A DNA stretch of 64,000 nt from Ktedonobacter sp. (GCA_041156125.1 JBEVTI010000008.1:63659-127658), one strand, 5' to 3'; shown: positions 1,471-59,290, numbered from the stretch's first letter. The notes: generated from the letters alone by a model not told the origin. A program made the numbers and translations.

Positions 1471-1493
1471 TGCCTCGCGAGACGCGCAAATGT

Positions 1494-8527: not shown

Positions 8528-8568
8528 GACTGCTCGGCACCTGTGGCGCCTCGCATAAAGTCTCTTTT

Positions 8569-8619: not shown

Positions 8620-8637
8620 ACAGGACAGGACGTGTAT

Positions 8638-23639: not shown

Positions 23640-24065
23640 CCAACACCTCGGCGTTTCGGGAAGAATATCTTGCACCTAGTTTAAACCACAAACGCGTACA
23701 ATGCAACGAAAATGTCAGGCGTTCTCGATATAGTATCTTACGGATAACGAACAAGTAATGTCACGAATCCGCGCCTGGCCCGTATATTTAACGCTCTCTA
23801 GGGCCTGGACCGGCTTAGCAAGACCGATCCCGCGCAACGCCGCGCTCCTGATAGAGGGTTCCCTCGCTGGAACAAATTTCTCTCGCTCTTAAAATACATT
23901 CCCCCTAATAAGGACGTAATGTCAAGAGGCTTCTTAAAAGATGTGGCAAATTTGGGGAAAAGGAAAACCCCTATCCAACCATACACTCAGGTAAGGCTGA
24001 ATAGGGAGTGAAAACGGCTCTTCTAATTAACATCATCAGAAGGCCGATTAAGAACATTCGCTTAG

Positions 24066-38885: not shown

Positions 38886-39290
38886 CCAGTTCACACAGGA
38901 AACGACTATGCTAACTACCCATGACCCCTTTATAGGGGACGTAAAAACCGATAAAAGCCGAAGAGGCAGTCACTGTAGAACAGCCGCTAACGCCGCCTAT
39001 CACCTTGCGCCCACCTGTTTCCGAAGAGGAGAGAAACAAGGTCATTGAAGCTTATACCCAGGGCATTCCCCGGCGCGAAATCTGTGCCTACCTTCGCTGG
39101 GGAGCCGCGAAATACACCCCTCTAGCACAAACCCGCCAAGCCTTCTCATATGATAAGATAGGCTGACAGAAAACCAGCACCGTCTAAAAAAGAGCAAGAT
39201 ATGATAAACGAGTATCAGATGCAATATTTCAATTTCTGCTCTTTTTTGTCGGAATGGGAGTAGCCCTGATACAATACAACGAGGTGGATT

Positions 39291-40754
39291 ATGCCTTATC
39301 AGATGTGGATTAACGGCGCGTACACAGCAAGCAGTTCAGGCAAGGTCATTGAAGTACAGAACCCTGCATCGGAAGAGATCATTGATACTGCACCAGCGGC
39401 CAACGCCGCCGATGTTGAGCGCGCGGTAACGGCGGCTCAGACTGCTTTCCCTGCATGGAAACGAATTCCAGCTGGTGAGAAGGCAGAAATGTTACATGAA
39501 GTTGCCAGAAAATTGACTGAGCGTACTGAAGAAATCGCGCGTCTCTTGACCCTGGAAGGCGGCAAGCCACTGGTCGAAAATAGGGATGAGATGGGCTGGT
39601 CGGCTGCCTGTTTCCGCTATTATGCGGAACTTGGTAGAAATTCTCGCGGCAGGGTTGTCCCATCCATCGAAGAAAGTCAATTGGCGATGGTGCTGAAAGA
39701 GCCGTATGGGGTGGTCGGCGTGATTGTTCCCTGGAACTATCCTATTTTGCTGATGGCCTGGAAGGTAGCACCGGCTCTGGCCGCAGGCAATACGGTAGTA
39801 CTTAAACCTTCAGAAATGACACCCCTCTCAACACTGCTCTTTGCTGAAATATTTGAGCACCTACCGCCTGGAGTGGTGAATATTATTAGCGGCTACGGCG
39901 CGGATTGTGGCGAGCCTCTAGTGCTTGATCCTCGTGTGCGGGTGATCGCTTTTACAGGCTCGCTAGCAACGGGACAACGCATCGCACAGCTAGCCGCGCC
40001 TATGATGAAAAAATTGCACCTGGAACTAGGTGGAAAAGATGCTTTTGTCGTAGCTGAGGATGCTAACCTGGACGTTGCTGTTCCCGGTGTGGCCTGGGCC
40101 AGCCTGCTTAATACAGGTCAAGTATGTACTTCAACGGAACGTGTATATGTTCACGAGTCTATCGCGCCCGAATTTATTGAGCGCATTGTAGCCTATACTC
40201 GCGCACTCCGCCTTGGGCCTGGAATGGAAGCCACAACAGATTTAGGCCCGCTGATTGGCGAACGCTATAGAGCAAAGGTCGAAGCTCAGATCGCAGAGGC
40301 GCGGAGTCAAGGGGCGCGTATTCTCACTGGCGGGCAGCGTCCTCCCCAATTTGAGCGCGGCTACTTCTATGAGCCAACTGTTATAACGCATGTTTCCCAC
40401 TCCATGCCGATTATGCGTGAAGAAACCTTTGGCCCAACCATTCCAATTATGACCTATCGTGATTTCAGTTCAGCAATCGAAATGGCAAATGACAGCGATT
40501 TTGGTCTTGGTGCCAACCTCTATACCTATGATCCCCTGAAAGCCAAACGCTTCTTTGAGGAGGTTCAGGCAGGTACCCTCTGGATTAACGATCCCCTGAC
40601 GGATAACGATGCAGCTCCCTTTGGTGGCTTTAAGTTCAGTGGCGGCAGCCGCGAACTAGGCGAAGAGGGTCTGGAAGAGTTCCGCGCAACCAAACACGTT
40701 CACTGGGACTTTGAAGGTGGCCCGAAGTCCTGGTGGTATCCCTACGGGAAATAA
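39291..40754 (+). CDS. NAD(P)-dependent aldehyde dehydrogenase
   Basis: ELGGKDAFVV and catalytic Cys in GQVCTSTERVYVHE; PWNYP and GNTVVLKPSE motifs. Confidence 0.85.
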   Translation: MPYQMWINGAYTASSSGKVIEVQNPASEEIIDTAPAANAADVERAVTAAQTAFPAWKRIPAGEKAEMLHEVARKLTERTEEIARLLTLEGGKPLVENRDEMGWSAACFRYYAELGRNSRGRVVPSIEESQLAMVLKEPYGVVGVIVPWNYPILLMAWKVAPALAAGNTVVLKPSEMTPLSTLLFAEIFEHLPPGVVNIISGYGADCGEPLVLDPRVRVIAFTGSLATGQRIAQLAAPMMKKLHLELGGKDAFVVAEDANLDVAVPGVAWASLLNTGQVCTSTERVYVHESIAPEFIERIVAYTRALRLGPGMEATTDLGPLIGERYRAKVEAQIAEARSQGARILTGGQRPPQFERGYFYEPTVITHVSHSMPIMREETFGPTIPIMTYRDFSSAIEMANDSDFGLGANLYTYDPLKAKRFFEEVQAGTLWINDPLTDNDAAPFGGFKFSGGSRELGEEGLEEFRATKHVHWDFEGGPKSWWYPYGK

Positions 40755-40784
40755 CGCCGGTTACTCAAGTGAGTATCTCTAAAA

Positions 40785-43700
40785 CTATGTCATTATGTCT
40801 GTTTCATTATCCTGCTCTTCGGTAGAAGGCTGAGACGAGATCATAGCGGCAAGGCGATCTCGGGTTATTTGTGTGTCCATATGCTCTGGCCCCAGCACAC
40901 GCTCCTGGAGAGCGAGGATACGTTTGTAGATAGAGCTTTTTTCATTCTCTCGATGTTGACGGTGGTAGAGCATTGCCAGAGCGTTGAGGGAGTATATGAG
41001 AGCAGGATGATCGAGGCCGAGAATGCGTTCTTGCGCTTTTATTCCCTGCTGAAGCACGCTTTCAGCTTGTTCATACTGACCTTGTTCTATATACAACCTG
41101 CCGAGTTGGCTGAGCGTTCGCAATGTGTCGGGATGCTCGTGTCCGAGAAGACGTTTCTGGATGCTGAGGGTTTGCTCAAGCAGGTTCGCGGCCTGTTCAT
41201 ATTGTCCCTGCTCAGTATAGAAACTGCCAAGGTCGCTCATGCTACGTAGGGTATCAGGGTGTTCATTTCCTTGAGCGACCTGGCTCATGGCCAGTGCCCT
41301 CTTATAAAGCATCTCTGCGTTCTCAAGGCGTCCCTGATCGTGGGCTAGCCTGGCCAGATTATGCACAGTTTGCGCGGTGAGAGGATGTTCTGGTCCCAAA
41401 AATTGTTCGCGGATAAGCAATGCACGTTCATATAATTGTCTGGCTTGCTCGTATTTCCCTTGTGCTCGATACATCCCGGCAAGGTTGTTTAAACTCTGGG
41501 CTGTATCGGGATGGGTGTTGCCAAGGACTCGCTCCCGTACTGCCAACACTCGTTCATATAACGGTTGAGCTTTCTCAAACTGTCCTTGTTCCCGATAGAG
41601 ACCAGCCAGATTATTTAAACCACGCAACGTATGTGGGTGTTCCCCGCCAAGCGTTTGTTCCCAGAGTTGATTGGCTTGCTGAATTAACGGTTCTGCTTCC
41701 ACATATCTGCCTTGTTCTCGATAAAGCCCTGCCAGTGTGTGAAGTGTTTGGACATGGTCGGGATATTCTGGTCCTCGTATGTGTTGCCAGATTGCCATTG
41801 CCCGAAGCAGTAAGGTCTCGGCTTCCTGATATTGCCCCTGTTTGCGCGCCAGGAAAGCCAGATGCCCAAGGCTACGAGCTGTCTCAGGATGCTCAGGGCC
41901 TAAGATCTGCTCTCTTAATGCCAATACGTGCTCTAGAAGCTGTCGTGCTCGTTCGTAGTTTCCCTGTTCGCGATAGAGCCTTCCGAGCGTCATCATCGTT
42001 TGTATGGTTTCAAGATGGGCTTTTCCCAGGACTCGTTCACGAATAGCCAATGCTCTTGCGTAAAGCGTTTCTGCCTGTTCATAATCTCCCTGAGCTGCTG
42101 TCAGTTCAGCAAGATTATGGATGGTTTGTGCTGTTTCTTTCTGTTCTGTGCCTAAAACCCGTTCGTAGAGAGCAAGTGACTGGCGCAGTAAAGGCTGTGC
42201 TTCCTCAAAACGTGCTCGCCTGAGAAGAAAGTAGCCTGCTTGATTGAGAAGATAGGCTAGATCTGCCGTTGCCTGTACCGTGTCATGCCTGCTCCACTGG
42301 GCAGCCAGAAGCACATGGGGAAGCAAGCGTTCACAACGGTCCCAGTTGCTGACTTCTATGATGACGGGAAAGGCTCGCGCAAGCAGGAGCGTGACTCTCT
42401 GTACCCAGTTTTGTTGCTCCTCCATATGCAGTGATGTTCGTACCACACTCTGAACAAGCCGATGGATGCCAAGAGTCTGGTGGAATGCGTCACGAGTGAT
42501 AAGCGAGTAGGCTCGTAAGGCTTCTATGGCTTTTTCAAAGAGAAAACGATTGCTTACCACTGGTGAGAGCAACGGACCCAGCATCTCTCCTCCTTGCATA
42601 AGAAGGGCTTCATCAATGGCATCGGGATGCAAGAACGCGCAGACCTGGAGAAGGGCAACAGCGGCGGGATTGCGAGCTTCGACGCGTTGAAAGGCGAGTT
42701 GCCAGGTCGTCGCTACTGGTGCAGGATGATATTGTTCTTGCCCACGATGCTCGGCAAGCAAGTCAAGTTGATACTGATGATAGATTTGTATGTATACATC
42801 TAGATTCATGCCTGTGGCTTCCAGATAGGCACCCGCCTGGTCGAGCGCCAGCGGCAATACCCCCAATTCCTGCGCTAACTGTAGGGCCAGATGTTGCTCC
42901 TCGGCAGGGGCGTTTTCAAGGGGATCGTCGGGGAGGAGGCGTCCAGCACGTCTGAGGAGCAGCAGAGTAGCCTGAGCAGGCGTGAGACCTTCGAGCGTGA
43001 GGATATGAGCAATGCCGAGACGACGCAATGCTGTTGCCTGGGTGGTAAGCAAAATGTGTCCAAGAAGGAGAGAGGGAAGAAAGGGGAGACAGAGATCTGG
43101 CTCGTTGGCATTGTCCAGGATCAAAAGCCAGTGCTCATGATTCTGTAACCAGGTTTTCACTGCTCGAACAACGATTTCCTGCCTGGGGTCTTTTTGCTGT
43201 GGCAGATCGAGTACTCGTGCTATTTCCGCATATGATGCATACAAGGTCTCGGCATTTTCTGCTGAGACCCAGAACACGGCCTGATAGTGCTGACGAAAGC
43301 GATACGCATATTCAATCGCAAGTTGTGTTTTGCCAATGCCACTCAATCCTGTAAGCGCCTGTGCAGCGTGCGAGCCATTCGCGAGCTTTGCTTGAAACCA
43401 GGTATGTAGACGGTTCAGTAACTCTTCCTGACCAAGAAAAAAGGGATTGCGTGCAAAAGGGAGATGCCAGATGAGAGTAGATGTGTTCTGTGGCAGGCGC
43501 AGGGTGAGAAGGAAGAGATCTGCGAGCATGCGGCGCAAACCGGCTGTAATTTCAGCAAAGGCACGATCAATATTTGTCCATTCTGTCAAAAACGTTGCAT
43601 CAGATGGCAAGGGATGGAGGCGAGCAAAAGGAGCATCTTCCCAGTCAACAGGTCGAAGCAAGATAGGAACGACACGCACGCCATTTGTTTGTTCTCGTGC

Positions 43701-43967
43701 CAACGCCTGTTTCATTTGAGTGCTATAGCAATAATCGGATGCGAGGAAATCGGGACTAATCAGTAACAGAATAACAGAAGCACTTTGTAAGTAGCTATCA
43801 ACAATCTTTTCCCAGTCTTCCCCTGCCTGGATAAGTCGAGGATGCCAGGTGGTAATCAGGTTTTGCCGTTGAAGCAATGCGAGATGTTTCTCTAGTTCTA
43901 GCGCCCAGGAGGTATCCTCTTGTGCATACGCATAAAAAATAGCAATGGGTTGGTGTTGTTCTGGCAT
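40785..43967 (-). CDS. TIR - NB-ARC (STAND P-loop NTPase) - TPR repeat protein
   Basis: N-terminal TIR-like IAIFYAYAQEDTSWALELEKHL...ASVILLLISPDFLASDYC; P-loop GLSGIGKTQLAIEYA and Walker B WLLILDNANEP; more than 10 C-terminal TPR repeats. Confidence 0.8.
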   Translation of the reverse strand: MPEQHQPIAIFYAYAQEDTSWALELEKHLALLQRQNLITTWHPRLIQAGEDWEKIVDSYLQSASVILLLISPDFLASDYCYSTQMKQALAREQTNGVRVVPILLRPVDWEDAPFARLHPLPSDATFLTEWTNIDRAFAEITAGLRRMLADLFLLTLRLPQNTSTLIWHLPFARNPFFLGQEELLNRLHTWFQAKLANGSHAAQALTGLSGIGKTQLAIEYAYRFRQHYQAVFWVSAENAETLYASYAEIARVLDLPQQKDPRQEIVVRAVKTWLQNHEHWLLILDNANEPDLCLPFLPSLLLGHILLTTQATALRRLGIAHILTLEGLTPAQATLLLLRRAGRLLPDDPLENAPAEEQHLALQLAQELGVLPLALDQAGAYLEATGMNLDVYIQIYHQYQLDLLAEHRGQEQYHPAPVATTWQLAFQRVEARNPAAVALLQVCAFLHPDAIDEALLMQGGEMLGPLLSPVVSNRFLFEKAIEALRAYSLITRDAFHQTLGIHRLVQSVVRTSLHMEEQQNWVQRVTLLLARAFPVIIEVSNWDRCERLLPHVLLAAQWSRHDTVQATADLAYLLNQAGYFLLRRARFEEAQPLLRQSLALYERVLGTEQKETAQTIHNLAELTAAQGDYEQAETLYARALAIRERVLGKAHLETIQTMMTLGRLYREQGNYERARQLLEHVLALREQILGPEHPETARSLGHLAFLARKQGQYQEAETLLLRAMAIWQHIRGPEYPDHVQTLHTLAGLYREQGRYVEAEPLIQQANQLWEQTLGGEHPHTLRGLNNLAGLYREQGQFEKAQPLYERVLAVRERVLGNTHPDTAQSLNNLAGMYRAQGKYEQARQLYERALLIREQFLGPEHPLTAQTVHNLARLAHDQGRLENAEMLYKRALAMSQVAQGNEHPDTLRSMSDLGSFYTEQGQYEQAANLLEQTLSIQKRLLGHEHPDTLRTLSQLGRLYIEQGQYEQAESVLQQGIKAQERILGLDHPALIYSLNALAMLYHRQHRENEKSSIYKRILALQERVLGPEHMDTQITRDRLAAMISSQPSTEEQDNETDIMT

Positions 43968-44299
43968 ACTTCGGCCTCCCTCTCATTACAAGCCGCTCTC
44001 CTGGCCTTTGGTCTAGCTGCATCCAGATGAAAAAAGATGAAATGCTTGTATTTTGTTTGTTTTATTTATATAGATTATAAACAAGAATATGTCTGCCGTC
44101 CAGTTTGATGTCTTTTGTGTTTTCTTTGCGTTTCTCAAAAGGAGAATTGATGGCAGCTTTGTCCTATCCATTGGGTACTGGCAAGAAAGGCCTTGAAGGA
44201 GAACAGAGTAAACAAATGTTATTCATTTTTAATGATATACTATTTAAGCGACACGGAAGGAATGAGTTTTCCGCGGGAGAGACGAGAAGAAAGAAGTTT

Positions 44300-45676
44300 A
44301 TGAATCGGCATCCTTATAAAGATCGCATCCCTGAAATTATCTGGGAGCTTGTGTTTGGCTCATTGCGTAAGGCAGGACCGCTTCTTCCTGGTCCTGATTC
44401 ACGTACCCGACATATCAGCTATACGCACGAATTATTGATGCTCTTAGATATAGATTTTCATCGTTGGCCTCGCGTGACAGTAACGGGGAGCAAAGGGAAA
44501 GGCTCCACGGCGGTTTTATTGGCAAGTATTCTGCAAGGGAGTGGCGAGCGTGTGGGATTGGTGAGTAGTCCAGAAATGCGTCGTTTCAATGAACGTATCA
44601 GGATTGATGGGACGTGCGTTTCTGACGATATGTTGGTGTGGGCTGCAAACCGGATTGCCCCTGCCGTCAGATCCCTGATAGAGCGTATTCAACCACCTCA
44701 TTACCTGGGTTCAGGAGGAGTTGTGCTTGCTCTGGCAGCCACCCTTTTCGCGGAAGCAGGCGTATCAGCCGTGGTTGTGGAGGCAGGACGTGGAGGAGAG
44801 TATGATGAGGCACGGCTGATTGAAGCGAATGTTTCCGTACTTACACCTATCATGTTAGAGCATGCCGATAAGTTAGGATCAACGACGCAGGCCATCGCCC
44901 ACACCAAAGCATTGATTACGTTTCCAGGGAGTCCTCTCGTCACCGCGCCACAAATAGAAGAAGTCCAGAAAGTGATTGAGGATGTTGGGAAAGAGCTTCA
45001 GAGTGAGGTCCACTCGGTCGTCCAGGAGATGAGCCTGGAACATGTCACGAATGAGCGCATGGGTGTTCGTTGTGATCTCCAGTTTGGTGAGCATGCCTTT
45101 CAGAATCTCTTGATCTCTCTCCCAGGATTACATCAGGCTGAGAATGCAGCTACTGCGATCCTGGCTGCATTCCAACTCAAACGTATTGCCGGAACAAACT
45201 GGACCACTGAGGGTATCAGCCAAGGATTACAAGAGGTTTCCTGGCCAGGTCGAGCGCATATGCTTCAGCAGGAGCCCTGGGTTCTCCTTGATGGAGCAAT
45301 CAATCGAGAGGCCGCTGAACAAATTGCCACAATTGTGCATGTGCATCCGGCAAAGAGGCTGACGGCGGTCGTGTGCGTGCCTAAACCGAAGGATCTGGAA
45401 GGTCTGTGTGCAATCATTGGTCCGCTTGTCACCACGCTGATCCTCACCAAAGTTCCTGTGCATCATCTGGCATGGTACGAGAATGCCTCTGCAATCGCCT
45501 CCCAATGGTGTACTGATGTCAGAACCATCGATGTTCCCGAAACAGCTTTCCACTATGCCCTCTCACAGGCTGGACCAGACGAAGGGGTGCTCTTGCTCGG
45601 GACTCAATCATTCCTGGGAACAGCATTGACGTTTTGGGATGTTGATACCTGTCGCGTTTGGCAAAAGCACGCGTGA
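44300..45676 (+). CDS. FolC-like Mur ligase family protein (folylpolyglutamate/dihydrofolate synthase-like)
   Basis: VTGSKGKGSTA P-loop, SPEMRRFNERIRIDG, DGAINREAAE; start uncertain (ORF track 44105; ATG 44300 gives canonical N-terminal length). Confidence 0.6.
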   Translation: MNRHPYKDRIPEIIWELVFGSLRKAGPLLPGPDSRTRHISYTHELLMLLDIDFHRWPRVTVTGSKGKGSTAVLLASILQGSGERVGLVSSPEMRRFNERIRIDGTCVSDDMLVWAANRIAPAVRSLIERIQPPHYLGSGGVVLALAATLFAEAGVSAVVVEAGRGGEYDEARLIEANVSVLTPIMLEHADKLGSTTQAIAHTKALITFPGSPLVTAPQIEEVQKVIEDVGKELQSEVHSVVQEMSLEHVTNERMGVRCDLQFGEHAFQNLLISLPGLHQAENAATAILAAFQLKRIAGTNWTTEGISQGLQEVSWPGRAHMLQQEPWVLLDGAINREAAEQIATIVHVHPAKRLTAVVCVPKPKDLEGLCAIIGPLVTTLILTKVPVHHLAWYENASAIASQWCTDVRTIDVPETAFHYALSQAGPDEGVLLLGTQSFLGTALTFWDVDTCRVWQKHA

Positions 45677-45901
45677 TCCATGCATCCAACAACATGTCCC
45701 ACATCTTGCGTCACCTGAGCGTACCAGGGACGCAACTCAGTAGAAGTGCCGCAGGGTTGTTTCCACGATTGTCGAGCCTGCTCAGATCCCGACATCTCAG
45801 GAAGTCAGACAGCGCATCTGTAAGCACTTTGGCTGTGAATAAGTCGAGTGGCTGACGTAAAGGGCTGCGTCCTACGCTAATACAGCCTTCTCCTTCAGCT
45901 C

Positions 45902-46138
45902 TTATGCCTCAGGTTTTTCTTGTCTCTCTGGTAGTAACGCCTCATCATCATAATACAGATCTTCCATTGGGACGTTGAGATACGCTGCTACTTTGGCGAG
46001 TGTCGCGAACGTGGGTGTGTAGGTAGGATCGTTGACCATGCGTCGAGCAAGAGTAATAGGCACATCTGCGGCACGCGAAAGCTTTCCTATGCTCACGCCC
46101 TTGTCTTTCAGAACGTCTTTTACCCTTAATCGGTACAT
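45902..46138 (-). CDS. small XRE-family HTH transcriptional regulator
   Basis: HTH_3-like LKDKGVSIGKLSRAADVPITLARRMVND; AAGGAAGAG RBS before ATG. Confidence 0.7.
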   Translation of the reverse strand: MYRLRVKDVLKDKGVSIGKLSRAADVPITLARRMVNDPTYTPTFATLAKVAAYLNVPMEDLYYDDEALLPERQEKPEA

Positions 46139-46250
46139 ACTTCTCTTCCTTCTTTCTCTCAGCAGCTTCATTATACCTGGACGCGGCGTTCGGAGAGTAG
46201 TCCCGCTTGGTATGCGCCTTGACCTGGACGCAAAGCAATGATAGTCTCTT

Positions 46251-46283
46251 TCTAGATATCTAGATCTAGTCTAATATCAGACT
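46251..46283. promoter_or_regulatory. cluster of overlapping palindromes (candidate operators) between divergent XRE genes
   Basis: TCTAGATATCTAGA (14-bp perfect palindrome), CTAGATCTAG (10 bp), AGTCTaatatcAGACT inverted repeat, read directly. Confidence 0.45.
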
Positions 46284-46391
46284 CAAAGAGTGACTAATTT
46301 TCTCGCATCACAGAAGCTATGTACTGAGCGGAAAGTAGAGAGTGAGCTTGATCTACAAGTATCAGCGCGTTTTTTCTTTTCGCGTTATTTT

Positions 46392-46444
46392 CTGCTCGAC
46401 AAAGGCGATATTGTCATGGTATGCTCTAGAACATAGAGCGTAGG
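46392..46444 (+). promoter_or_regulatory. 53-bp promoter-like element (TCGACA-18 nt-TATGCT), copy 1, upstream of XRE gene
   Basis: ctgctcgacaaaggcgatattgtcatggtatgctctagaacatagagcgtagg; near-identical copy (3 mismatches) at 50588-50640. Confidence 0.5.
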
Positions 46445-46484
46445 CCAGAATCGTTACTGAGCAGAGTTGAAGAGGGTAGATAAG

Positions 46485-47174
46485 ATGGAACGGGCACAGC
46501 TATCAACGGCCAGGGGCAAGGAACGGACGCTACTCATTGCAGCGCGACATGCCTGTCATTTCTCTCAGGATGAGGTAGCGGCGAAGATCCAGGTGAGCAA
46601 GGTGACAGTGCATCGATGGGAGAGGGAGGGAGATATCCCCCAACCGTTACACCTTCGGAAACTTTGCACGCTTTACGGCAAGACTGCGCAGGAACTTGGT
46701 TTCGCGCGACAAGAGCCAGAGCCTGACGAGGCAGTCGTTGATGTACAGACCATCGACAAGACAGAGCACAATGAGGCTGAGGAGTGCGCGCTGACGATCT
46801 TTCGCCAGCACAACCTGATCTCACGCCTGATGCGCCTTCTCTGGAACTGGCCTTCTGGTGATGCCCGTTATCATCTTGGAATGTCACAACAGGCACTTGC
46901 TTGCTTTGTCAAAATTGACCAGCTTCCCATCGCCCATGAAACCAACCGTGTCGCATCTCTTCTTCACCAGGTCATGGCCGAAGTCAATCGCGGAGACAAA
47001 ACGCACGACCTGGACTTTTGTCTTGAGCGCTGGCAACGGGGCATCCAGGGAGCCATCGCCATGCGGAGCGAACAGACGCTGACAGAAGCAATCCACGCAT
47101 ATACTGCGCTATGCATTGCCTGGCCCGGCGAGAAACGGGTAAAACAGTTGCGCGAGTCGATTATTCGCTGGTAG
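46485..47174 (+). CDS. XRE-family HTH regulator with about 150-aa C-terminal domain of unknown function
   Basis: HTH_3-like FSQDEVAAKIQVSKVTVHRWEREGDIPQPLHLRKLCTLYG; ATG 46485 preceded by GAGGG. Confidence 0.65.
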   Translation: MERAQLSTARGKERTLLIAARHACHFSQDEVAAKIQVSKVTVHRWEREGDIPQPLHLRKLCTLYGKTAQELGFARQEPEPDEAVVDVQTIDKTEHNEAEECALTIFRQHNLISRLMRLLWNWPSGDARYHLGMSQQALACFVKIDQLPIAHETNRVASLLHQVMAEVNRGDKTHDLDFCLERWQRGIQGAIAMRSEQTLTEAIHAYTALCIAWPGEKRVKQLRESIIRW

Positions 47175-47445
47175 CAGCCAATTTATCAACCCAGCAGGGT
47201 CTCTGATTGCCCTGCTGAGTTTTTCTTTACATGCTGTTACTCGCTATTCCTCGCGAGGGGAACAAGATGTAAAGCGAGTAACACAATAACGGTGCGTTGT
47301 ATATCTTCCATCAAAGTGATTTAAGATCCCTTTAAATTACTCTGAGCTAGAAAAAAATACTTGCTATGAAGTATTTGTTATGTTAATATAAGTCTATCTA
47401 TAAATAAAATACAGAGCAGAAGCGAGTTTTGCATAGGTCATCTCC

Positions 47446-50400
47446 ATGAAGAATTTTCAAGAAGGCCAGATATTTGGGAATTATCGACTGATCGAGCTTA
47501 TCGGTAAAGGTGGCTTTGCCAGCGTCTGGAGATGTGAGCATATTCATCTTGGCGTCAAAGTGGCGATAAAGTTTCTGAGCGACATGGATAGCTTCGGAAG
47601 GGTGAGTTTTCTCCAGGAAGCAAAGATCATAGCCACACTTCGTCATCCAAACATTGTTCGCTTATTGGATTACTCGGTGCAAGACAATCAGGCGTACCTG
47701 GTTATGGAATATGCTCTTGGTAGCCTGGGCCAACGACAAAGCACACAAGAATTGTTGGATCTCGCAACTGTTGTTTCCTATGTGAAGCAAATGGCTGCGG
47801 CACTTCAGTATGCTCATAAGCAAAATATCATTCATCGTGATGTCAAACCACAGAATATGCTTATAAGTGAGAGCGGTAATATCTTGCTCAGTGATTTCGG
47901 CATTGCGATTGCAAGCGCTAATACGAGCGAGAGCGGTGAATTAAACACGGGTTCTATGGTTGGCACTGCTCATTTTATAGCCCCTGAACAGATTCTGGGT
48001 AAACCCCGCCGGGCGAGTGACCAGTACTCTCTGGCCATTTGTGCCTATTTCTGGCTATGCGGAACCTATCCTTTTCAAGGATCAATCTCTGCACTGATTG
48101 CTCAGCACATGCATACACCACCCCGCCCGCCGCTAGAATTCAACCCGGCTCTACCCTCTTCTGTAGGAGATGTGTTGCTGAAAGCACTGGCTAAGAAGCC
48201 CGAAGATCGTTTTAGCAGTGTGGAAGATTTTGCCAAATCTTTAGAATTGGCCTGTTCTGGCCAGGGTATCATCCCTCAAGTTCCCGCAACTACTCCGTAT
48301 CAGGCTACTGGGATAGCCACACACTATTATTCACGAAGCACCAATATTGGACCGATAAATGTTTCAATAATACCTACTTCCGCTAGTCTTAATGCCACAA
48401 AACCAGTACAAGTATCTACAATCTCAGCACCAGCCAGACAGCATTCAAACTTAGGCTTACGCTTCTTTACTTATCTGTTAGTAATGCCACTACTTATACT
48501 GCTCACACCGTTTCTACTGCTTTATCATTATTCTATGCAAATTTGGCGTTCGACAAGAAGAGCTCATCGTCCCAATCCCATACAGCCAGGGCGGGTAATA
48601 GCCATCCTGGAGCTACTTCCGCTACCACAAAATTTCTGGCCAGCCAGGCTATTGAGCGGGAAAGCAGCATCTCTAGCACCACCATTACCAGGTGATGCTA
48701 TTCAGAACTCCTCCCGGCTAGCCAGCGTACCATTATTGGCCAGTGGTCAGCATAATGCTTCTTGGGCGAAAGCCGCGTGGATGCATACAGCATCTTTTCT
48801 AACAAAGGGGCCACCTTCTTTATCCACTTTAGCAGATCAGAGTACGCTCGTGCAAACATTGCCTGGCAAGGATGGCTTTCTTGACGAGTCACTTCAAAAC
48901 CCGGACGCGCAGCCCCCAGAATTGGCCAGTGTAGACAAGCAGGCACCTCCAATCTATCACTCGCCCGAAAGTTTACAACCCGAGGAACGACCAGATAGGT
49001 GGAGCAGGGCATCCGCGCGCAAAAACTTTTGCATTCTGCATCATGACAAAGATCGCAGTTGGGCTGAATGGATTGCCTGGTTGCTTGAAGATGACGGGCT
49101 TAGTAGCATCTTGCCGGAATGGGACTTCCGCCCGGGTTACAGAGTTGACCGGGAGACACGCAACGCTATGAGTCAGGCAGAGCGGATAATTGTGATTATC
49201 TCACCCGATTATCTGGATGTGAGCAATGATCAATGGGGAATCGTCTTTAATAGAGAGAGAGTCCGCCGAGAAGGGATGATATTGCCCATCATTGTAAGAG
49301 AATGCAACTCTCCCTTAAAAAAGCCACTCGATACACTTGTCTCCATCAACCTCGTCGGTCGAGGTGTGTTTCACACAAGCGAGAAGCTGCTCAAAGCTGT
49401 GCGCCTGAATCGCAGTAAACCGACATTGGCGCCGGCCTTTCCATTACCCAACCAGGATGATAGCTCGCTAGCAACTCGCAAGCTGGATCGCGCGGACAAC
49501 CAGCAAGATACCCCGCCACGCGGGCTTGATATTATAAGTAGCTCTAATCCTAAAGTTACAACTACGCCTACTGAGCGCTTTGATACAGGTATCTCATCTC
49601 CTCAAATAATCGAGCAAATTAAAACCGCTTTCAGTCAGGAAGACTGGTTAGATGTCATTCGCAAAGTCCGTCTTCTCATTCAAGACTCGACACCTACAGG
49701 TATTTCCTGGCAGATTTATCGTATGCAAGCGCTTGCTTATCATTCTTTGGGGCAGATGGCAGAGGCACATGGCGCTCTAGAAGCTGCTCTCGCCATGGTG
49801 AACGATAAGAAAGAACGTCTCGCCCTTCTCGACGAGTATACAAATAAGCTTGCTTCGCTGAAACACTGGTCAGAAATGCTTCCATATGCGAAGGAGGCAT
49901 TAACTCTTGCACCTGAGGATATCCGTTGGCAAGTATTACACGAACACATTACCACTCATCTACAACGAGAAGCCTTCGGCCTGGAAAGGAGCCAGGGATT
50001 TGACCAAGCGCTCCAGCAGAGTGATGACAAACAAAATCATCAGAAAACGTCCGCAGAACATATAATATCCTTTCATACACAGTTTTCTAACCCTGAGGAT
50101 ATGAAAACTATGATTATATCTGATAAGACAATTAACATTTTTATTGCCTACGCTCTTGATGACAAAGAATTATGCACTCGTTTAAAGCATCAATTGATTC
50201 CACTAGCCAATCAATCTCCATTAATCATCTGGTATGACCATGAAATAGTTCCAGGTAAAGAGCGTGTAAAGATTATGGAGAAGCGCCTTACATCGTCTCA
50301 AATCGTCATTCTGTCCATAAGCGCGGCCTTCCTGGCTTCAGAATACCATCAGAGAGAAATGAGGCTCGCATTAGAAAGGTACGAGGCGAACACAGCAAGC

Positions 50401-50574
50401 ATAATTCCCGTTCTCTTACGACCCAGCGACTGGGAGAAAACTTCACTGGGCAATTTCCAACCGCTTCCCCAAAGTGGTCTACCAGTTACGACCTGGCCCA
50501 ATACTGATGAGGCTCTATTAGATATTGTCAAAGGTATTCGCCAGGCAGTCGAAGAACTTCAAAATACTCTTTGA
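47446..50574 (+). CDS. Ser/Thr protein kinase - TM - TIR - TPR-like - TIR multidomain protein
   Basis: Kinase: GKGGFASV, VAIK, HRDVKPQN, DFG, APE. Hydrophobic LLVMPLLILLTPFLLLY. TIR-like 1 around CILHHDKDRSWAEWIAWLLED...IIVIISPDYL. C-terminal TIR-like 2 IFIAYALDDKELCTRLKHQL...IVILSISAAFLASEYHQRE. Confidence 0.8.
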   Translation: MKNFQEGQIFGNYRLIELIGKGGFASVWRCEHIHLGVKVAIKFLSDMDSFGRVSFLQEAKIIATLRHPNIVRLLDYSVQDNQAYLVMEYALGSLGQRQSTQELLDLATVVSYVKQMAAALQYAHKQNIIHRDVKPQNMLISESGNILLSDFGIAIASANTSESGELNTGSMVGTAHFIAPEQILGKPRRASDQYSLAICAYFWLCGTYPFQGSISALIAQHMHTPPRPPLEFNPALPSSVGDVLLKALAKKPEDRFSSVEDFAKSLELACSGQGIIPQVPATTPYQATGIATHYYSRSTNIGPINVSIIPTSASLNATKPVQVSTISAPARQHSNLGLRFFTYLLVMPLLILLTPFLLLYHYSMQIWRSTRRAHRPNPIQPGRVIAILELLPLPQNFWPARLLSGKAASLAPPLPGDAIQNSSRLASVPLLASGQHNASWAKAAWMHTASFLTKGPPSLSTLADQSTLVQTLPGKDGFLDESLQNPDAQPPELASVDKQAPPIYHSPESLQPEERPDRWSRASARKNFCILHHDKDRSWAEWIAWLLEDDGLSSILPEWDFRPGYRVDRETRNAMSQAERIIVIISPDYLDVSNDQWGIVFNRERVRREGMILPIIVRECNSPLKKPLDTLVSINLVGRGVFHTSEKLLKAVRLNRSKPTLAPAFPLPNQDDSSLATRKLDRADNQQDTPPRGLDIISSSNPKVTTTPTERFDTGISSPQIIEQIKTAFSQEDWLDVIRKVRLLIQDSTPTGISWQIYRMQALAYHSLGQMAEAHGALEAALAMVNDKKERLALLDEYTNKLASLKHWSEMLPYAKEALTLAPEDIRWQVLHEHITTHLQREAFGLERSQGFDQALQQSDDKQNHQKTSAEHIISFHTQFSNPEDMKTMIISDKTINIFIAYALDDKELCTRLKHQLIPLANQSPLIIWYDHEIVPGKERVKIMEKRLTSSQIVILSISAAFLASEYHQREMRLALERYEANTASIIPVLLRPSDWEKTSLGNFQPLPQSGLPVTTWPNTDEALLDIVKGIRQAVEELQNTL

Positions 50575-50587
50575 ACGAGCGGCATCC

Positions 50588-50640
50588 TGCTCGACAAAGG
50601 CGATACTGTCATGGTATGCTTTGGAACATAGAGCGTAGGT
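50588..50640 (+). repeat. 53-bp promoter-like element, copy 2, 13 nt after kinase-TIR stop
   Basis: ctgctcgacaaaggcgatactgtcatggtatgctttggaacatagagcgtagg. Confidence 0.5.
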
Positions 50641-50918
50641 GAAAAATCTACGCGAGTATATCATCCAGTAAAGGGTGGTACCAAAGAAACGCGGCATAGC
50701 CTTCACAGGTTATGCTGTTTTTTGTTCCCGCTCGTTCTATTTTGTTACTCGCTCTGCCTCTGGCGGGTAACAAAATGTAAATCAGTAACATAATGATTAT
50801 AAGCTGAATATAGTCCGCAATCGCTATTTCTGGGTATTTTCATCTATACTCTCTCATGGTGCTACTTACCAGTCAAGTCTGTTTGATTGGCAGGTAGATC
50901 TCGCAGCGATGGCTGCCC

Positions 50919-51352
50919 ATGCCGTCGCTTCGTTCGGGAGAGATCTGTGAAAGAGGGAAATTCTTGAGCGAGCAGAATGGTTTAGCTGGTCCCTCTCCAA
51001 TTCTGTGGCGTCTTATCCGAAGAGCTTTCCATCGGCCTCAGCTCTCTCCAGACTTTGTTGAGTCTCACACACGAATCGCTACACAAAGGATGAAGAGCGT
51101 CAAAGTGAACAATAACCAGAAGACTCTTATCGAGCAGATACGCAAGGAACTCGGAGCCTCTGAAGACACGGAGCATCTCGTTGATTGGCTCATCGATCTC
51201 TGGTCCACATTTGAAATCCTCAGCGACCGCTTTGGAAAAATCAGAGCGCTCCAGATCGTCATTGCGTCTGATCCGTTGCCGCAGATGAGGACGCAAGAGG
51301 CGCGACGTTCGCGTGAGGACTGTCTCCCACTTCTCATGGAAAGGATATTCTT
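50919..51352 (+). CDS. hypothetical small protein (only the N-terminal part of ORF-track 50919..51590 looks protein-like)
   Basis: MKSVKVNNNQKTLIEQIRKELG...ILSDRFGKIRALQIV looks globular; the 3-prime part overlaps the methyltransferase in another frame and is R/S-rich. Confidence 0.2.
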
Positions 51353-51895
51353 ATGGCATTCCTGCAGTGGCCGTTGCGCGGCAAGAAATCTGTCTCACAG
51401 CCTCAAGTGTGGGTGCGCACAGAAGCAGCGCAAACCCGGCGTCGTTACCTGGAAGAGACAGACTATCCGCTTCCCAAAGACGAGGGGGAAAAAAGTCGGC
51501 TGGACTTTCAACATCACGCGCTCAATCTCACGCCTGGCAACCAGTATCTCGCGCCTCTTCCGCAAAAAGTGCGTACGATCCTTGATGTAGGAAGTGGGAC
51601 AGGTATCTGGCCAGCAGACATGGCACGCCTCTTTCCTGAATCGCTGGTCCTCGGGTTGGATCTGGATACCGAACTGTTCAGCAAAAACGTACCAGCTAAC
51701 TGCCTGCTTCGCGCGGGCAATATCCTCACAGGATTGCCATTACCAGATGCCATTATAGAGTTCACTCATCAACGTTTCCTCGTGCTGGCCATCCCCGACG
51801 AACATTGGCCAAAGGTCGTACGTGAACTGCGGAGATCATCAAATGTGACGGAGTTCCAAAATTGGGGTAAAATCACAGTTTTACCGTTGCAGTAA
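51353..51895 (+). CDS. class I SAM-dependent methyltransferase (UMTA/LaeA-like N-terminal region)
   Basis: RRYLEETDYPLPKDEGEKSRLDFQHH then motif I ILDVGSGTGIW and LGLDLD. Confidence 0.65.
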   Translation: MAFLQWPLRGKKSVSQPQVWVRTEAAQTRRRYLEETDYPLPKDEGEKSRLDFQHHALNLTPGNQYLAPLPQKVRTILDVGSGTGIWPADMARLFPESLVLGLDLDTELFSKNVPANCLLRAGNILTGLPLPDAIIEFTHQRFLVLAIPDEHWPKVVRELRRSSNVTEFQNWGKITVLPLQ

Positions 51896-51995
51896 GAGAA
51901 CAAAGCGTTCTGACAGAAGAATGAAGGCTTCACGCCACTCGCATTCCCACGCATCTAGATCAGGAATCCTCCTGGTACTCACAGGCAATAGGCCT

Positions 51996-52093
51996 GTTCC
52001 AATCTCTACCGAGAAGCCGCCCCTCTATCCACCGTTATTGGAACGCCGTTTCAACATCCTTATCACAAGTTCCAATCTCTACCGAGAAGCCGC
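51996..52093. repeat. two identical 25-bp direct repeats separated by a 48-nt spacer
   Basis: gttccaatctctaccgagaagccgc at 51996-52020 and 52069-52093; spacer contains inverted partial copy attggaac. Confidence 0.5.
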
Positions 52094-52337
52094 TCCTCCT
52101 CGTAGCATCGCGCAGTAACTTTGTTTGACTCGCGTTCCAATGCAGCGGAGTATACATGCTCGCAGTTCACAGCGTCTTTCAACGCCAATCGCCCAGCGGC
52201 ATGACATACATCACGCGAGATTGCAGCGTCCCTCTCCATCCATCGTGAGGCTAGCGGGGTATCCCTTATAGCAAATGAGCATCTTTAAGTCAGGTATTCT
52301 ACAGCAGTTTCCAGTTGTAGAAGTATCCCGCCTGGCA

Positions 52338-52835
52338 TTATAAACCTCTGATCTGCATCAGCGCCGCTTTTAATTGCAGGTAGACATTATCCAGGTGATC
52401 TGGCATAACCTTGATATCGGCAATGACTGGCATAAAATTGGTGTCGCCATTCCAGCGAGGTACGACGTGGAGGTGCATATGATCGGCGAAGCCGGCTCCG
52501 GCAACTTTGCCTTCGTTAATGCCCATATTGAAGCCATCGGGCTTCATAGCCAGGCGCAGGACGCTAAGGGCCAGTTGGGTCTGCGACATTAGCTCCGCCA
52601 GGGTTTCAGCGTCAAGCAGTGAGATACTGCCAGCATGCTTGTAAGGGGCAATTAACAGGTGGCCGTTATTGTAGGGGTAAAGATTGAGCATAATAAAACA
52701 TCGCTCACCGCGATAGAGAATACGGAATTCCTCATCTGTGTACGCGTCCGGTTGCGTACAAAAAATGCATGCGTCTGATCGTGGAGTCTGCGGCGTAATA
52801 AAAGCCATACGCCAGGGCGCCCATAGATTTTCCAT
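52338..52835 (-). CDS. HIT (histidine triad) family protein
   Basis: HMHLHVVPR histidine triad and upstream NNGHLLIAP. Confidence 0.75.
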   Translation of the reverse strand: MENLWAPWRMAFITPQTPRSDACIFCTQPDAYTDEEFRILYRGERCFIMLNLYPYNNGHLLIAPYKHAGSISLLDAETLAELMSQTQLALSVLRLAMKPDGFNMGINEGKVAGAGFADHMHLHVVPRWNGDTNFMPVIADIKVMPDHLDNVYLQLKAALMQIRGL

Positions 52836-52861
52836 GACTCCAGTATAACATAGATGCTACC

Positions 52862-53251
52862 CTATTGAGCAGCTCCCTCTTGCACCAGGACCCCTACCGC
52901 CTCAGCTTCTTCCCCTGGCAGAGGAATCCATTTCTCGGCCCAATCGTGAATAGCCGCGACCACTGGCTGTAAATCGAGTCCCTTAGCGGTCAGACGATAT
53001 TCGACGCGCACAGGTATCTGTGGATAAACAATGCGCTCGATTATCCCCTCCGTTTCCAGCTCGCGCAGGCGATCGCTCAAGACGCGGTCCGAGAGTCCTT
53101 CTACCGCCGCGGTCATCTCGCAGAAACGCTGGGGACCATGCATAAGGGCGTCCAGGATCAAGCCGGTCCAGCGCTTGCCCAGCAATTGAATTGCATGCTC
53201 AAAACGCGGGCACATACGATTATTTGGTACTTCAGCCGGCTTCATCGCCAA
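52862..53251 (-). CDS. HxlR-family winged-helix transcriptional regulator
   Basis: CPRFEHAIQLLGKRWTGLIL...RFCEM...GLSDRVLSDRLRELETEGII typical HxlR. Confidence 0.8.
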   Translation of the reverse strand: MAMKPAEVPNNRMCPRFEHAIQLLGKRWTGLILDALMHGPQRFCEMTAAVEGLSDRVLSDRLRELETEGIIERIVYPQIPVRVEYRLTAKGLDLQPVVAAIHDWAEKWIPLPGEEAEAVGVLVQEGAAQ

Positions 53252-55512: not shown

Positions 55513-56655
55513 GTGGTGTTAGAGCGCAATCAAGAGGGTAAGAGGCAAATTGTGGAAACAGGTCGGGTTATTCATGGGCGTTATTTGCTACAACGCCTGA
55601 TTAAGCAGACAGCTTTTTGCTGCGTTTACCAGGGCATGGACCAGAGGCTTAAGCGCGCGATAGCTGTTAAATCGGTGTTTCCCGCCCATATCACGGTCTA
55701 TCGTACAGCCATGAAGATGACGGCAAATTTCTCCCACCAGCATATTCTCGGCCTCTATGACCTGGTAATTGAGCCTGAAGCTCTATATGTGGTGCAAGAA
55801 TATGTTGAAGGGGAGAGCTTTGAGACGCTGCTTCAAGCCCAGCTAAGTCCTTTCGAGATCGCCGAGGCCGGCTGGCAAATGTGCCTGGCCCTGATGTACG
55901 CAGGCAGTTCATCGCGCCGCGTCTGCCATGGAGATCTTACGCCTTCCGTGATTATCCGCGAATCCTCCGGGACGATTAAAATCAATGATTTTGCTTTGCC
56001 TACCGACGCAGTCTATTTTGAGAAATGGAGCAGCATGGGCGGAGAAGGAGTCGCCTTGCTGGAAACGGAGATGGCCTGGGGTCAGCAAAGCGAGGAGCGC
56101 AAGGCTGATGATACGCGCGCTGTGGGCTTGCTACTCTACCAGTTGCTCACCGGTATGCTGGAACCCCAGGTTGATGGACGCCTGCGCTTTTCACGCGGCA
56201 CGCCACCAGAGTTATGCGAAACTCTCGCCCGCGCTATCGTTCGCCAGCATCCTCAGAATATCAATACACCAGAAACACTTTACGCCCAACTCAAGGTGCT
56301 CGCAGAGGCGCTAGAACCGGCTCCAGCCACAGTAGAAGAACCATTGATACGTCAGTTCTCACCCGCCGGCGCAGGTAAGATGGGCTCCCCATCCCCCCTG
56401 CCATCTAGAGATGCCGAGCGTAACGCGCGCAATCTCTCTTCCTACAGCGGTCAACTCCCCCGCATTGAAGCGTTATCCTCAGATCCCACGGTCGCTAATG
56501 TTCCCTTCATCGCTTCCAGGCAACCGCTGCAGAAGCCTTTCGCGACCAATTTCAATAAACCTTCACCGATGCTGATTATCCTGCTGCTCGGCCTGATAGC
56601 TTTTGGCTTCTTTTTCGCAGTTGGCTACTTTCTAGGCCATATGCTGATTCCTTAA
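55513..56655 (+). CDS. protein kinase-like protein with degenerate catalytic motifs (likely pseudokinase), C-terminal TM anchor
   Basis: Kinase fold cues (GRYLLQRL, AIAVKSV, HGDLTPSVII in place of HRDLKPxN, NDF in place of DFG); no Gly-rich loop; C-terminal LIILLLGLIAFGFFFAVGYFLG helix. Confidence 0.6.
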   Translation: MVLERNQEGKRQIVETGRVIHGRYLLQRLIKQTAFCCVYQGMDQRLKRAIAVKSVFPAHITVYRTAMKMTANFSHQHILGLYDLVIEPEALYVVQEYVEGESFETLLQAQLSPFEIAEAGWQMCLALMYAGSSSRRVCHGDLTPSVIIRESSGTIKINDFALPTDAVYFEKWSSMGGEGVALLETEMAWGQQSEERKADDTRAVGLLLYQLLTGMLEPQVDGRLRFSRGTPPELCETLARAIVRQHPQNINTPETLYAQLKVLAEALEPAPATVEEPLIRQFSPAGAGKMGSPSPLPSRDAERNARNLSSYSGQLPRIEALSSDPTVANVPFIASRQPLQKPFATNFNKPSPMLIILLLGLIAFGFFFAVGYFLGHMLIP

Positions 56656-58686: not shown

Positions 58687-59290
58687 AAGAAGCATCTGTC
58701 CCTTCTACTTATTAGTTAGATACCTGGCTCATTCATAGTAACATATTCTAGTATACGAGCCTTTTTCAGCAGGTGTACTCTCCGGCTGGAAAAACTCGGC
58801 TGGAATGAGGATGAGGAGCGTTCTCTCCTCTCAGATGCACAGGGCGGCTGTGCATACTCCTTTCTCGGCGCTGATGCGTGTCTTGCGCATCAGCGCCGAG
58901 AAAGTTTTGGGGACATGCAAAAGTTCTCACGATGCTTTTACAAGATCAGGGGATTTGCAAATAAAGAATTCCATTGACAACACCCTGACATGCCTGTATG
59001 ATCTGGTAGACAGAGGAAGAAAAGAGCCGAGCACGCCACGAGTATTTGGAGAAGCTCTGGACGCCTTGCCAGTCAGGGTAATTGCCCAACTGCGGAGTTG
59101 GAGCCAATGACACTTCCATTGCATGATGAAGCCATTGAAGAATACGTCGGACAGTAAGAACTGCAATATGAGGGACCAGGGCACAATGCTTAAGTATTTA
59201 GACCCGCGCGCTGGCTCTCATGCTGAAAGCTATTGAGGCTCTGCGAAGAACGGTTTGCCACCTTCTAATGGAGGATTCCAGTACGCATCT

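Follow-up and report, generated by a model that had tools for sequence, protein, structure and literature searches.

When genes for a TIR-carrying STAND protein, a FolC ligase, two XRE-family regulators and a protein kinase with two TIR domains are found side by side in a bacterial genome, the question arises whether they work together as one system or are separate modules which only share a location. This question is raised by a stretch of DNA of 64,000 nucleotides (nt) from Ktedonobacter sp. (GCA_041156125.1 JBEVTI010000008.1:63659-127658), called the window in the following, for which a first-pass annotation had proposed an acquired island for defence or signalling at positions 40785-51895. 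The reading favoured here, with a probability of roughly 0.6, is that of a mosaic defence or cell-death island, made up of conflict-type modules which were inherited separately and are located in a variable hotspot. The best-supported effector in it is a kinase-TIR1-TPR-TIR2 protein. As an island as such it belongs to a familiar type, and what sets it apart is this kinase-TIR-TPR-TIR architecture together with the pairing of the STAND gene with a FolC paralog. The source name in the record is Ktedonobacteraceae (Chloroflexota), and the chromosome is that of a soil bacterium. The nearest FolC locus in the genome collection likewise comes from a metagenome-assembled genome (MAG) of the Ktedonobacteraceae, and the sequence of the window is also contained in the MAG GCA_034437995.1 (contig DAOTTF010000020.1), in GCA_036401475.1 and in one Logan assembly.

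The extent of the island was defined by comparison with relatives. Metagenome contigs were scanned with the aldehyde dehydrogenase of the left flank, and all genes of the window were mapped onto the 80 loci returned. The island and its two flanking genes are the following:

40769..52348, no strand: island, an insertion relative to close relatives (blastn gap in locus L017, adjacency of the aldehyde dehydrogenase and HIT genes, GC content)
39291-40754: aldehyde dehydrogenase gene (Aldedh), left flank of the island
52338-52835, minus strand: HIT gene, right flank of the island

The aldehyde dehydrogenase and HIT genes are immediate neighbours in loci L023, L017, L064, L030, L034 and L067. The aldehyde dehydrogenases of these empty-site relatives are 80-93% identical to the one in the window (L023 86% at the amino acid level, L017 93%). 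The gene order in L023 is that of the window without the island, i.e., dynamin-like GTPase, ABC, two hypothetical genes, FtsX, Aldedh, HIT, HxlR, a hypothetical gene (hyp192), ROK and kinase, the matches to aldehyde dehydrogenase and to HIT being separated by 13 bp. A blastn comparison of the DNA placed L017 on window positions 39148-40768 and then on 52349-52975, so that the gap spans the island. From the empty sites and this jump in the alignment from 40768 to 52349 it follows that positions 40769-52348 are a lineage-specific insertion of 11.6 kb.

In other relatives the same junction holds different cargo. A DRT8-like reverse transcriptase is found in L028 (8095-9375, minus strand) and also in L055 and L040 (PADLOC 3.8e-102), and a D12 Dam-like methylase in L044 (12931-14055, plus strand; PADLOC MTase_II 1.5e-55). 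Further cargo consists of an MFS transporter, of a GNAT gene together with a small XRE-like gene, and of an IS607-like element. In L018, which has an aldehyde dehydrogenase 91% identical to that of the window, an IS607-like element composed of a serine recombinase with an N-terminal helix-turn-helix (HTH) and a TnpB-like open reading frame (ORF) follows directly after that gene (5898-7042); this locus also contains a local inversion, with an inverted partial copy of the aldehyde dehydrogenase upstream, and its HIT flank is replaced by sugar-transport genes. As empty sites and alternative cargo occur at the same junction in relatives, the Aldedh/HIT junction is a variable hotspot which collects conflict genes. 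A transposase or resolvase remnant with an HTH, suggested previously at 38.98-39.15 kb near the left edge of the island, could not be supported: the only match of the frame 38975-39163 was HTH_23 at E = 0.037, which is below the cutoff, and the frame has no similarity to the IS607 recombinase of L018 or to any fetched locus. The intergenic region between FtsX and the aldehyde dehydrogenase gene (window 38887-39277) exceeds that of L023 by about 290 bp, the additional sequence including the 63-codon open frame which had been taken for this remnant, and the similarity of L016-L018 to the window begins only at about 39145.

The composition of the island differs from that of its surroundings. Its GC content is 49.1% as compared to 53.5% in the rest of the window, and it is the block of lowest GC content of that length within the window. 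The shift claimed in the first pass is thus real, but the size given for it, 47-50% against 55-62%, was too large. The mean GC content at third codon positions (GC3) of the genes is 0.50 in the island and 0.60 outside (Mann-Whitney p = 0.001). It is not low in the gene of the larger XRE protein (0.60) nor in a methyltransferase-like ORF at the right end (0.54). For the FolC gene a low GC3 cannot be taken as a sign of foreign origin and is uninformative in this respect, because the FolC gene in a core context of the same MAG has an equally low GC3 of 0.446, with a mean of 0.58 for its neighbours (L097 8001-9386, contig DAOTTF010000065.1). The interpretation as an acquired island is supported by the GC shift, by a gene order that is not universally conserved, since close relatives have the aldehyde dehydrogenase gene abutting HIT or other cargo in between, and by the TIR profiles described below. 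The main ORFs and domains expected within it, which are the TIR-STAND protein, the ligase, the XRE pair and the kinase-TIR-TIR protein, were all confirmed.

The kinase-TIR-TIR gene has the following coordinates, with the two codons discussed below:

47446..50574, plus strand: Ser/Thr kinase-transmembrane (TM)-TIR1-TPR-TIR2 protein, 1042 amino acids (aa) (Pkinase 2e-47, TIR_2 twice, 6.6e-36)
49231..49233, plus strand: TIR1 codon 596 (Gln), at the position of the conserved Glu of the subfamily
50356..50358, plus strand: TIR2 codon 971 (Glu), putative catalytic glutamate

The protein starts with a kinase domain (aa 13-258), followed by a hydrophobic segment (about 335-362), TIR1 (523-655), a three-TPR domain (718-858) and TIR2 (896-1041). 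The kinase domain is PknB-like, and with its motifs GxGxxG, VAIK, HRDVKPQN, DFG and APE intact it looks active. The segment at about aa 335-362 is the only hydrophobic peak, and is otherwise found solely in the homolog P0003. An AF2 model of residues 520-1042 had a mean pLDDT of 81 and yielded TIR1, a helical domain of three TPRs, TIR2 and disordered linkers, with a low pTM of 0.39 by which the relative arrangement of the domains is not fixed. In Foldseek searches TIR1 and TIR2 matched TLR1, SARM1, MyD88, BtTir and AbTir, and the helical domain matched idealised TPR proteins. The TIR-like regions of the island thus proved to be genuine TIR domains, as all three, including that of the STAND protein, pass TIR profiles (TIR_2) and as TIR1 and TIR2 fold as TIR domains in the AF2 model.

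Inspection of the TIR domains for the catalytic Glu gave a divided result: it is kept in TIR2 (E971) and replaced by Gln in the TIR of the STAND protein (Q84) and in TIR1 (Q596). TIR1 is of the type which heads many NB-ARC-TPR proteins. In the consensus of 67 such domains, ...SPDYL...PEWAAAF, the Glu is present in at least 85% of them. The aligned position is without Glu in every TIR1 copy of the kinase family, and in an alignment of the TIR1 of the kinase protein to TLR15 a Gly stands opposite the Glu of TLR15. TIR1 is therefore probably a non-catalytic scaffold. E971 of TIR2, on the other hand, falls on the 'KEL' Glu of PdTIR (3h16) in an alignment, and this Glu is kept in the homologs P0001 and P0002 and in 9 of the 12 aligned TIR2-type domains. 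TIR2 is 35% identical to the TIR of the STAND protein. With one TIR that has the Glu and one that lacks it in the same polypeptide, the cooperation of TIR domains in tandem could be studied directly.

This architecture is very rare. An exhaustive HMMER search of 1.84 billion representatives yielded about five clusters (50% identity) matching the whole TIR1-TPR-TIR2 module, namely the protein itself, P0199, P0002, P0202 and, partially, P0003, besides fragments. No description of a bacterial kinase-TIR fusion was found in the searchable literature or in PADLOC. The PADLOC models that matched were PD-T4-6 (4e-68, aa 6-284) and mad6 (2e-66) for the kinase domain, both models being dominated by the generic Hanks-type kinase domain with the remaining 750 aa unrelated, and ThsB1 for TIR2 (1.1e-35). 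In locus L012 the second TIR of the homolog P0003 is split off into a separate ORF with Gln at the catalytic position, and a TIR-CHAT (caspase-like) gene (347-1519, minus strand) and an IS4 transposase gene (6086-6916, plus strand) adjoin it. As a side observation, a gene for a LigT/2H phosphoesterase is located 45 nt after the homolog P0001 (L007 5714-6253, also in L008 and L009), a type of enzyme which could act on cyclic phosphate products.

At the left end of the island the STAND and FolC genes are divergently oriented:

40785..43967, minus strand: TIR-NB-ARC-TPR STAND protein, 1060 aa (Pfam, NCBIfam, PADLOC)
43716..43718, minus strand: STAND TIR codon 84 (CAA, Gln), at the position of the catalytic Glu
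44300..45676, plus strand: FolC (folylpolyglutamate synthase/dihydrofolate synthase, FPGS/DHFS) paralog, divergent from the STAND gene (TIGR01499)

The Pfam domains of the STAND protein are TIR_2 (aa 10-118), NB-ARC (194-405; 2e-6, 27.7 bits for a cutoff of 23.5), DUF7779 and an array of TPR_10/TPR_12 repeats (about 575-1046; TPR_12 6.7e-142, TPR_10 2e-118), the whole TIR domain extending from aa 8 to 151 (nt 43515-43946). The protein scores 533 bits with the NCBIfam model NF040586 (cutoff 300), and its TIR matches ThsB1 of PADLOC at 1.8e-40. Two contigs on record encode the identical protein of 1060 aa. Both Walker motifs, A with GLSGIGKT (aa 207) and B with LLILDN (aa 281), are intact. At position 84 Glu is found in 116 of the 120 closest homologs (97%), and an ortholog 74% identical in locus L096 reads ASDYCYSTEM, with Glu at this position. 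A change from Glu to Gln is the standard inactivating change for TIR NADases. Because Gln84 replaces the catalytic Glu, this copy of the STAND protein is predicted to be impaired as an NADase, and might be decaying or act as a scaffold only. For annotation this means that calling a protein TIR-STAND does not imply NADase competence. In another branch of the family, with homologs at 61-65% identity, the gene immediately before each STAND homolog is not FolC but one of about 180 aa encoding an HTH_17 domain (L099 5246-5785, L100 5437-5979), which suggests that the HTH_17 gene and the STAND gene form a conserved two-gene unit in that branch.

The ligase had been described as a FolC-like Mur ligase. 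The gene is present as described, and it turned out to be a true FolC paralog rather than merely similar to one, as judged by its score, its position in a tree and its conserved columns. It reaches 231.5 bits with TIGR01499 (cutoff 162.65) and matches FPGS structures in the PDB at 1e-33. Its open frame extends upstream to 44105 or 44150; since the homologs are only 444-462 aa long, with alignments beginning at about residue 51 of the 508-aa call, the real start is probably at 44300, giving 458 aa. Of the 59 columns conserved in at least 95% of the sequences the protein keeps 57, including the GSKGKGS P-loop, and because of this it is probably active. A second FolC (P0351), 61% identical, occurs in the same two MAGs in between RuvX/YceG/BacA and TsaD/TsaE genes. 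In a neighbour-joining tree the FolC of the island groups with P0345 on a long branch of their own, next to the housekeeping clade of the Ktedonobacteraceae. That the island gene is a housekeeping gene caught between defence genes was rejected in view of the other FolC in core context and of the clade of its own. On L096 the ortholog P0345 stands beside the divergent STAND ortholog, so that the pair recurs at 74-75% identity; this recurrence could reflect a functional link or shared ancestry alone. A FolC ortholog in another Ktedonobacteraceae MAG is surrounded by HSP20, ATP-grasp and nitronate monooxygenase genes. Nothing relevant on FolC in phage defence was found in the literature searched. 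Another link between gamma-glutamyl chemistry and TIR, besides that of FolC and STAND, is seen in P0200 (1921 aa), in which five TIR_2 domains occur together with a domain for poly-gamma-glutamate hydrolase.

Between FolC and the kinase gene lies a divergent pair of XRE genes with a set of repeated elements:

45902..46138, minus strand: small XRE-family HTH protein, 78 aa by the NCBI call, ORF reaching to 46171 (HTH_26 1.5e-8, HTH_3)
46252..46263, no strand: perfect 12-bp palindrome CTAGATATCTAG between the XRE genes, candidate operator
46392..46444, plus strand: repeat D3, 53 nt, promoter-like TCGACA-18-TATGCT plus TATGCTCTAGAACATA, upstream of the larger XRE gene
46420: palindrome TATGCTCTAGAACATA between the XRE genes, inside D3
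46485..47174, plus strand: larger XRE-family protein, 229 aa, ORF from 46467 (HTH_3 2.1e-9)
47192..47217, plus strand: terminator-like hairpin and T-run after the larger XRE gene
47224..47273, plus strand: repeat D4, 50 nt, inverted arms TGTTACTCGC / GCGAGTAACA, upstream of the kinase gene, candidate operator
50587..50781, plus strand: second copy of the XRE cassette elements without a gene (D3', hairpin, D4')

The divergent XRE pair with palindromes noticed in the first pass was thus recovered, with both HTH genes and the palindromes CTAGATATCTAG and TATGCTCTAGAACATA. The larger protein consists of an N-terminal HTH_3 and about 150 aa without a family match; an interpretation of this C-terminal part as a truncated STAND protein was rejected, as the HTH alone aligns. 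Just past the stop codon of the kinase gene D3' (50587-50639) is 94% identical to D3, a terminator-like hairpin follows at 50691-50718, and D4' (50732-50781) is 76% identical to D4, so that each copy of D4 follows a terminator-like hairpin. This is read as two tandem cassettes of promoter/operator, XRE gene, terminator, operator and effector gene, the second having lost its regulator and being followed by degenerate sequence only. The HTH of the larger protein is 39% identical to that of an HTH_3-STAND-TPR gene which adjoins a kinase-TIR-TIR homolog in L010. Because the cassette layout is repeated around the kinase gene, and because of this likeness to the L010 HTH, we infer that the larger XRE protein represses the kinase gene. 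D3 and D4 elements were absent from the homolog loci.

What decides between one system and a mosaic are the neighbourhoods of the homologs. Those of kinase-TIR-TIR homologs are unrelated to each other in each of four independent loci: PIN, aminotransferase, LigT, GNAT and HicB genes in L006-L009, the divergent HTH_3-STAND-TPR gene and HSP70 in L010, and TIR-CHAT and the IS4 element next to the kinase-TIR homolog of L012. The island is regarded as a mosaic of modules because its components are not found together where their homologs are located. If it were instead one integrated system, the STAND protein would sense, FolC and a methyltransferase would make or modify a signal, the XRE proteins would switch expression, and the kinase-TIR-TIR protein would execute. 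The genes are indeed adjacent with a shared lower GC3, the STAND-FolC pair recurs once, and the vicinity of a dead STAND TIR (Q84) to a protein which has a single live TIR may point to a heteromeric TIR assembly. Such an arrangement is nevertheless very improbable: FolC, this STAND family and the XRE pair are all missing from each of the four independent kinase-TIR-TIR loci, the STAND homologs have other neighbours, the terminator-like hairpins after the larger XRE gene and after the kinase gene delimit separate transcription units, the methyltransferase is a short remnant, and no complete system was found by PADLOC.

The earlier statement that this is not a named system also stands, as PADLOC matched single domains only (ThsB-type TIR, PD-T4-6, MAD6-type kinase) and no full system. 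Thoeris, FxSxx-COOH and Avs were considered as full systems and rejected since partner genes or family models are missing. Avs proteins and plant TIR-NLRs (TNLs) share a layout of N-terminal effector, central STAND NTPase and C-terminal repeat sensor (PMC13581612). The STAND protein of the island has the same effector-NTPase-TPR layout, with a TIR as effector and both Walker motifs intact, but its NTPase is of the NB-ARC/AP-ATPase type and its catalytic Glu is replaced by Q84; no curated Avs model was matched by it in PADLOC, where only ThsB1, TPR and two weak unrelated matches were obtained. Genes for TIR-AP-ATPase-TPR proteins have been described downstream of FxSxx peptide-processing systems (Kaur et al. 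2020, PMC7159879), and the STAND protein of the island has this TIR, AP-ATPase and TPR architecture and scores above the NF040586 cutoff. An FxSxx precursor, a radical-SAM/SPASM protein, a zincin peptidase and vWA-MoxR were found neither within about 10 kb nor among the scanned ORFs of the window, a search which covered the genes with Pfam calls at about 29.4-60.5 kb and other scanned ORFs, about ten smaller ORFs of the window being unscanned. The protein is a stand-alone member of the NF040586 family.

With Thoeris and TIR NADases such as AbTir, PdTIR and those of the SARM1 type the island shares the TIR fold, the ThsB1 matches of the STAND TIR and TIR2, and the Glu of TIR2. It differs in that its TIR domains are fused to STAND or kinase and two of the three have no Glu. 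Family scans detected no SIR2, Macro or SLOG domain of a ThsA-type partner in the island. As for single-gene Ser/Thr-kinase defences (PD-T4-6, Stk2-type, MAD6 of MADS), the matches to the PD-T4-6 and mad6 models cover only the generic Hanks-type kinase domain, whose catalytic motifs are intact, and the TM-TIR1-TPR-TIR2 part has no counterpart in these families. Conserved flanks with an empty site or alternative defence cargo in relatives are features of core defence hotspots; the differences from these are the uncultured Ktedonobacteraceae host, the lack of a detected integrase or att site, and the presence of a metabolic FolC paralog among the cargo.

For the island as a mosaic a mechanism can be proposed module by module. 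Module A would comprise the STAND protein and the divergent FolC paralog; if it worked like Avs proteins and plant TNLs, a trigger might bind to the TPR array, upon which the NTPase would oligomerise and the clustered TIRs would cleave NAD+. Module B would be the divergent XRE pair with its palindromic candidate operators, the larger XRE protein keeping the kinase gene repressed. Module C, the monocistronic kinase-TM-TIR1-TPR-TIR2 gene, would encode a self-contained sensor-effector. A trigger sensed via the kinase or the TPR domain would lead to assembly of TIR1 and TIR2, with TIR1 as the non-catalytic partner, and TIR2 would then hydrolyse NAD+ or make a signal, resulting in growth arrest or cell death. 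Module D would be a degenerate tail with a methyltransferase-like remnant. The data establish the insertion, its domains, the state of the residues, how rare the kinase family is and that conserved partners are lacking, whereas the role in defence or cell death, control by XRE and NADase activity are inferred.

Several points weigh against such an island. To our knowledge, no phage and no trigger is known for this uncultured lineage. Family scans and gene calls detected no integrase or recombinase inside the island, no boundary direct repeat or att-like site of at least 8 nt is present at its ends, and no tRNA or non-coding RNA gene was found at its borders. As the closest STAND and FolC homologs come from Ktedonobacteraceae, 'horizontal' would mean movement within the lineage at most. 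The two loci with the STAND-FolC pairing are related, and it may be no more than synteny passed on by descent. D3 and D4, for their part, may have been left behind by a duplication instead of being operators. In the kinase protein, a single membrane pass at aa 335-362 would place the TIR domains outside the cell, and the hydrophobic segment is missing in P0001 and P0002. As two of the three TIR domains are without the catalytic Glu, NAD+-based killing can only be argued for TIR2. Finally, TIR-STAND genes number thousands in the Ktedonobacteria group, and they may serve non-antiviral roles (PMC7159879).

The last point leads to an explanation which is unlikely, namely that the genes take part in ordinary STAND, TIR and kinase signalling of mycelial Ktedonobacteria, for example in developmental cell death, kin recognition or stress signalling, and happen to be located in a recombination-prone spot. 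The STAND family is in fact very large, with at least 4479 close TIR-NB-ARC-TPR homologs at E < 1e-10, many of them from Ktedonobacteria, and such systems are enriched in multicellular bacteria (PMC7159879). The kinase is PknB-like, and a second STAND protein and a second kinase are present in the conserved flank. A purely developmental or signalling role fits less well with the DRT8-like reverse transcriptase and the methylase which occupy the same junction in relatives, with the toxin-antitoxin, TIR-CHAT, STAND and IS genes adjoining kinase-TIR-TIR homologs, and with a presence or absence that differs among close relatives, as is typical of conflict genes.

The right-hand end of the island is poor in recognisable genes:

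51353..51895, plus strand: S-adenosylmethionine (SAM)-methyltransferase-like ORF, 180 aa, probably truncated (Methyltransf_25 29.5 bits, cutoff 27)
51996-52025 and 52069-52098, plus strand: two 30-nt direct repeats, 97% identical, with a 43-nt spacer, at the right edge of the island

The SAM methyltransferase proposed there is weakly supported: a weak Methyltransf_25 match does exist, but it covers only aa 76-161 of a short remnant of 180 aa, and in comparisons with methyltransferases in the PDB motif I alone aligns. The ORF is probably truncated at its C-terminal end. A hypothetical gene annotated in the first pass at 50919-51590 was rejected. It has no match in Pfam, NCBIfam or PADLOC, overlaps the methyltransferase-like ORF, shows an atypical GC content by codon position and is not called in the NCBI record.

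These remnants raise the possibility that the whole island is decaying cargo with little present function, containing a dead STAND protein, a cut methyltransferase, an orphan cassette and a redundant FolC. The Q84 in place of a Glu conserved in 97% of the family, the 180-aa methyltransferase-like ORF, the gene-less D3'-D4' cassette, the matchless ORF at 50919-51590, and the split L012 homolog with Gln in its TIR2 would all be in accordance with this. General decay is nonetheless improbable, as none of the three long ORFs (1060, 458 and 1042 aa) is interrupted, the motifs of kinase and NTPase are preserved, FolC keeps its 57 of 59 columns, and the Glu of TIR2 is retained.

If the island is taken as a mosaic for defence or cell death, a more specific proposal can be made for two of its parts, which as a joint proposal is speculative and rather doubtful. 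The kinase-TIR-TIR protein would be an undescribed single-protein device for abortive infection or cell death, in which the two TIR domains of the molecule would form an asymmetric pair, with TIR1 as Glu-less scaffold and TIR2 as catalytic partner, gated by a Hanks-type kinase. Such a protein would unite in one bacterial polypeptide the 'TIR plus kinase' logic of Toll/IRAK signalling. The FolC paralog would be a guarded decoy which mimics the housekeeping FolC, and the TPR array of the STAND protein would monitor modification or binding of the paralog by an invader. A FolC paralog beside an NLR-like TIR-STAND gene is an unusual pairing, and a guard/decoy relationship is one possibility for it. 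The hotspot itself, with its variable cargo and mapped empty site, belongs to the Ktedonobacteria, which have large genomes, are mycelial and mostly uncultured, and whose immune repertoire has hardly been studied.

Some minor observations concern the edge of the island and the rest of the window. The two 30-nt repeats at the right edge are 73 nt apart, and the first 8 nt of the repeat recur in inverted form within the spacer. The spacer had no match in viral contigs, and the fold, with a z-score of -1.55, is not significant. An interpretation as a mini CRISPR array was dismissed, with two copies only and a spacer without viral match. The right flank contains a second Ser/Thr kinase (window 55513-56655, plus strand), which is kept in relatives without the island, and a second STAND protein with NB-ARC and TPR but no TIR (window 59255-61378, plus strand). 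Further to the left, two full-length RelA/SpoT homologs (HD_4, RelA_SpoT, TGS, ACT) are arranged in tandem on the same strand (window 18513-21029 and 21324-23675, both minus). A gene for an SMC_N/SbcC-like ATPase of 1077 aa (window 5294-8527, plus strand) overlaps the start of a gene for a nuclease with a NurA domain (8524-9906, plus strand), and together they resemble a Rad50/NurA-type operon pair.

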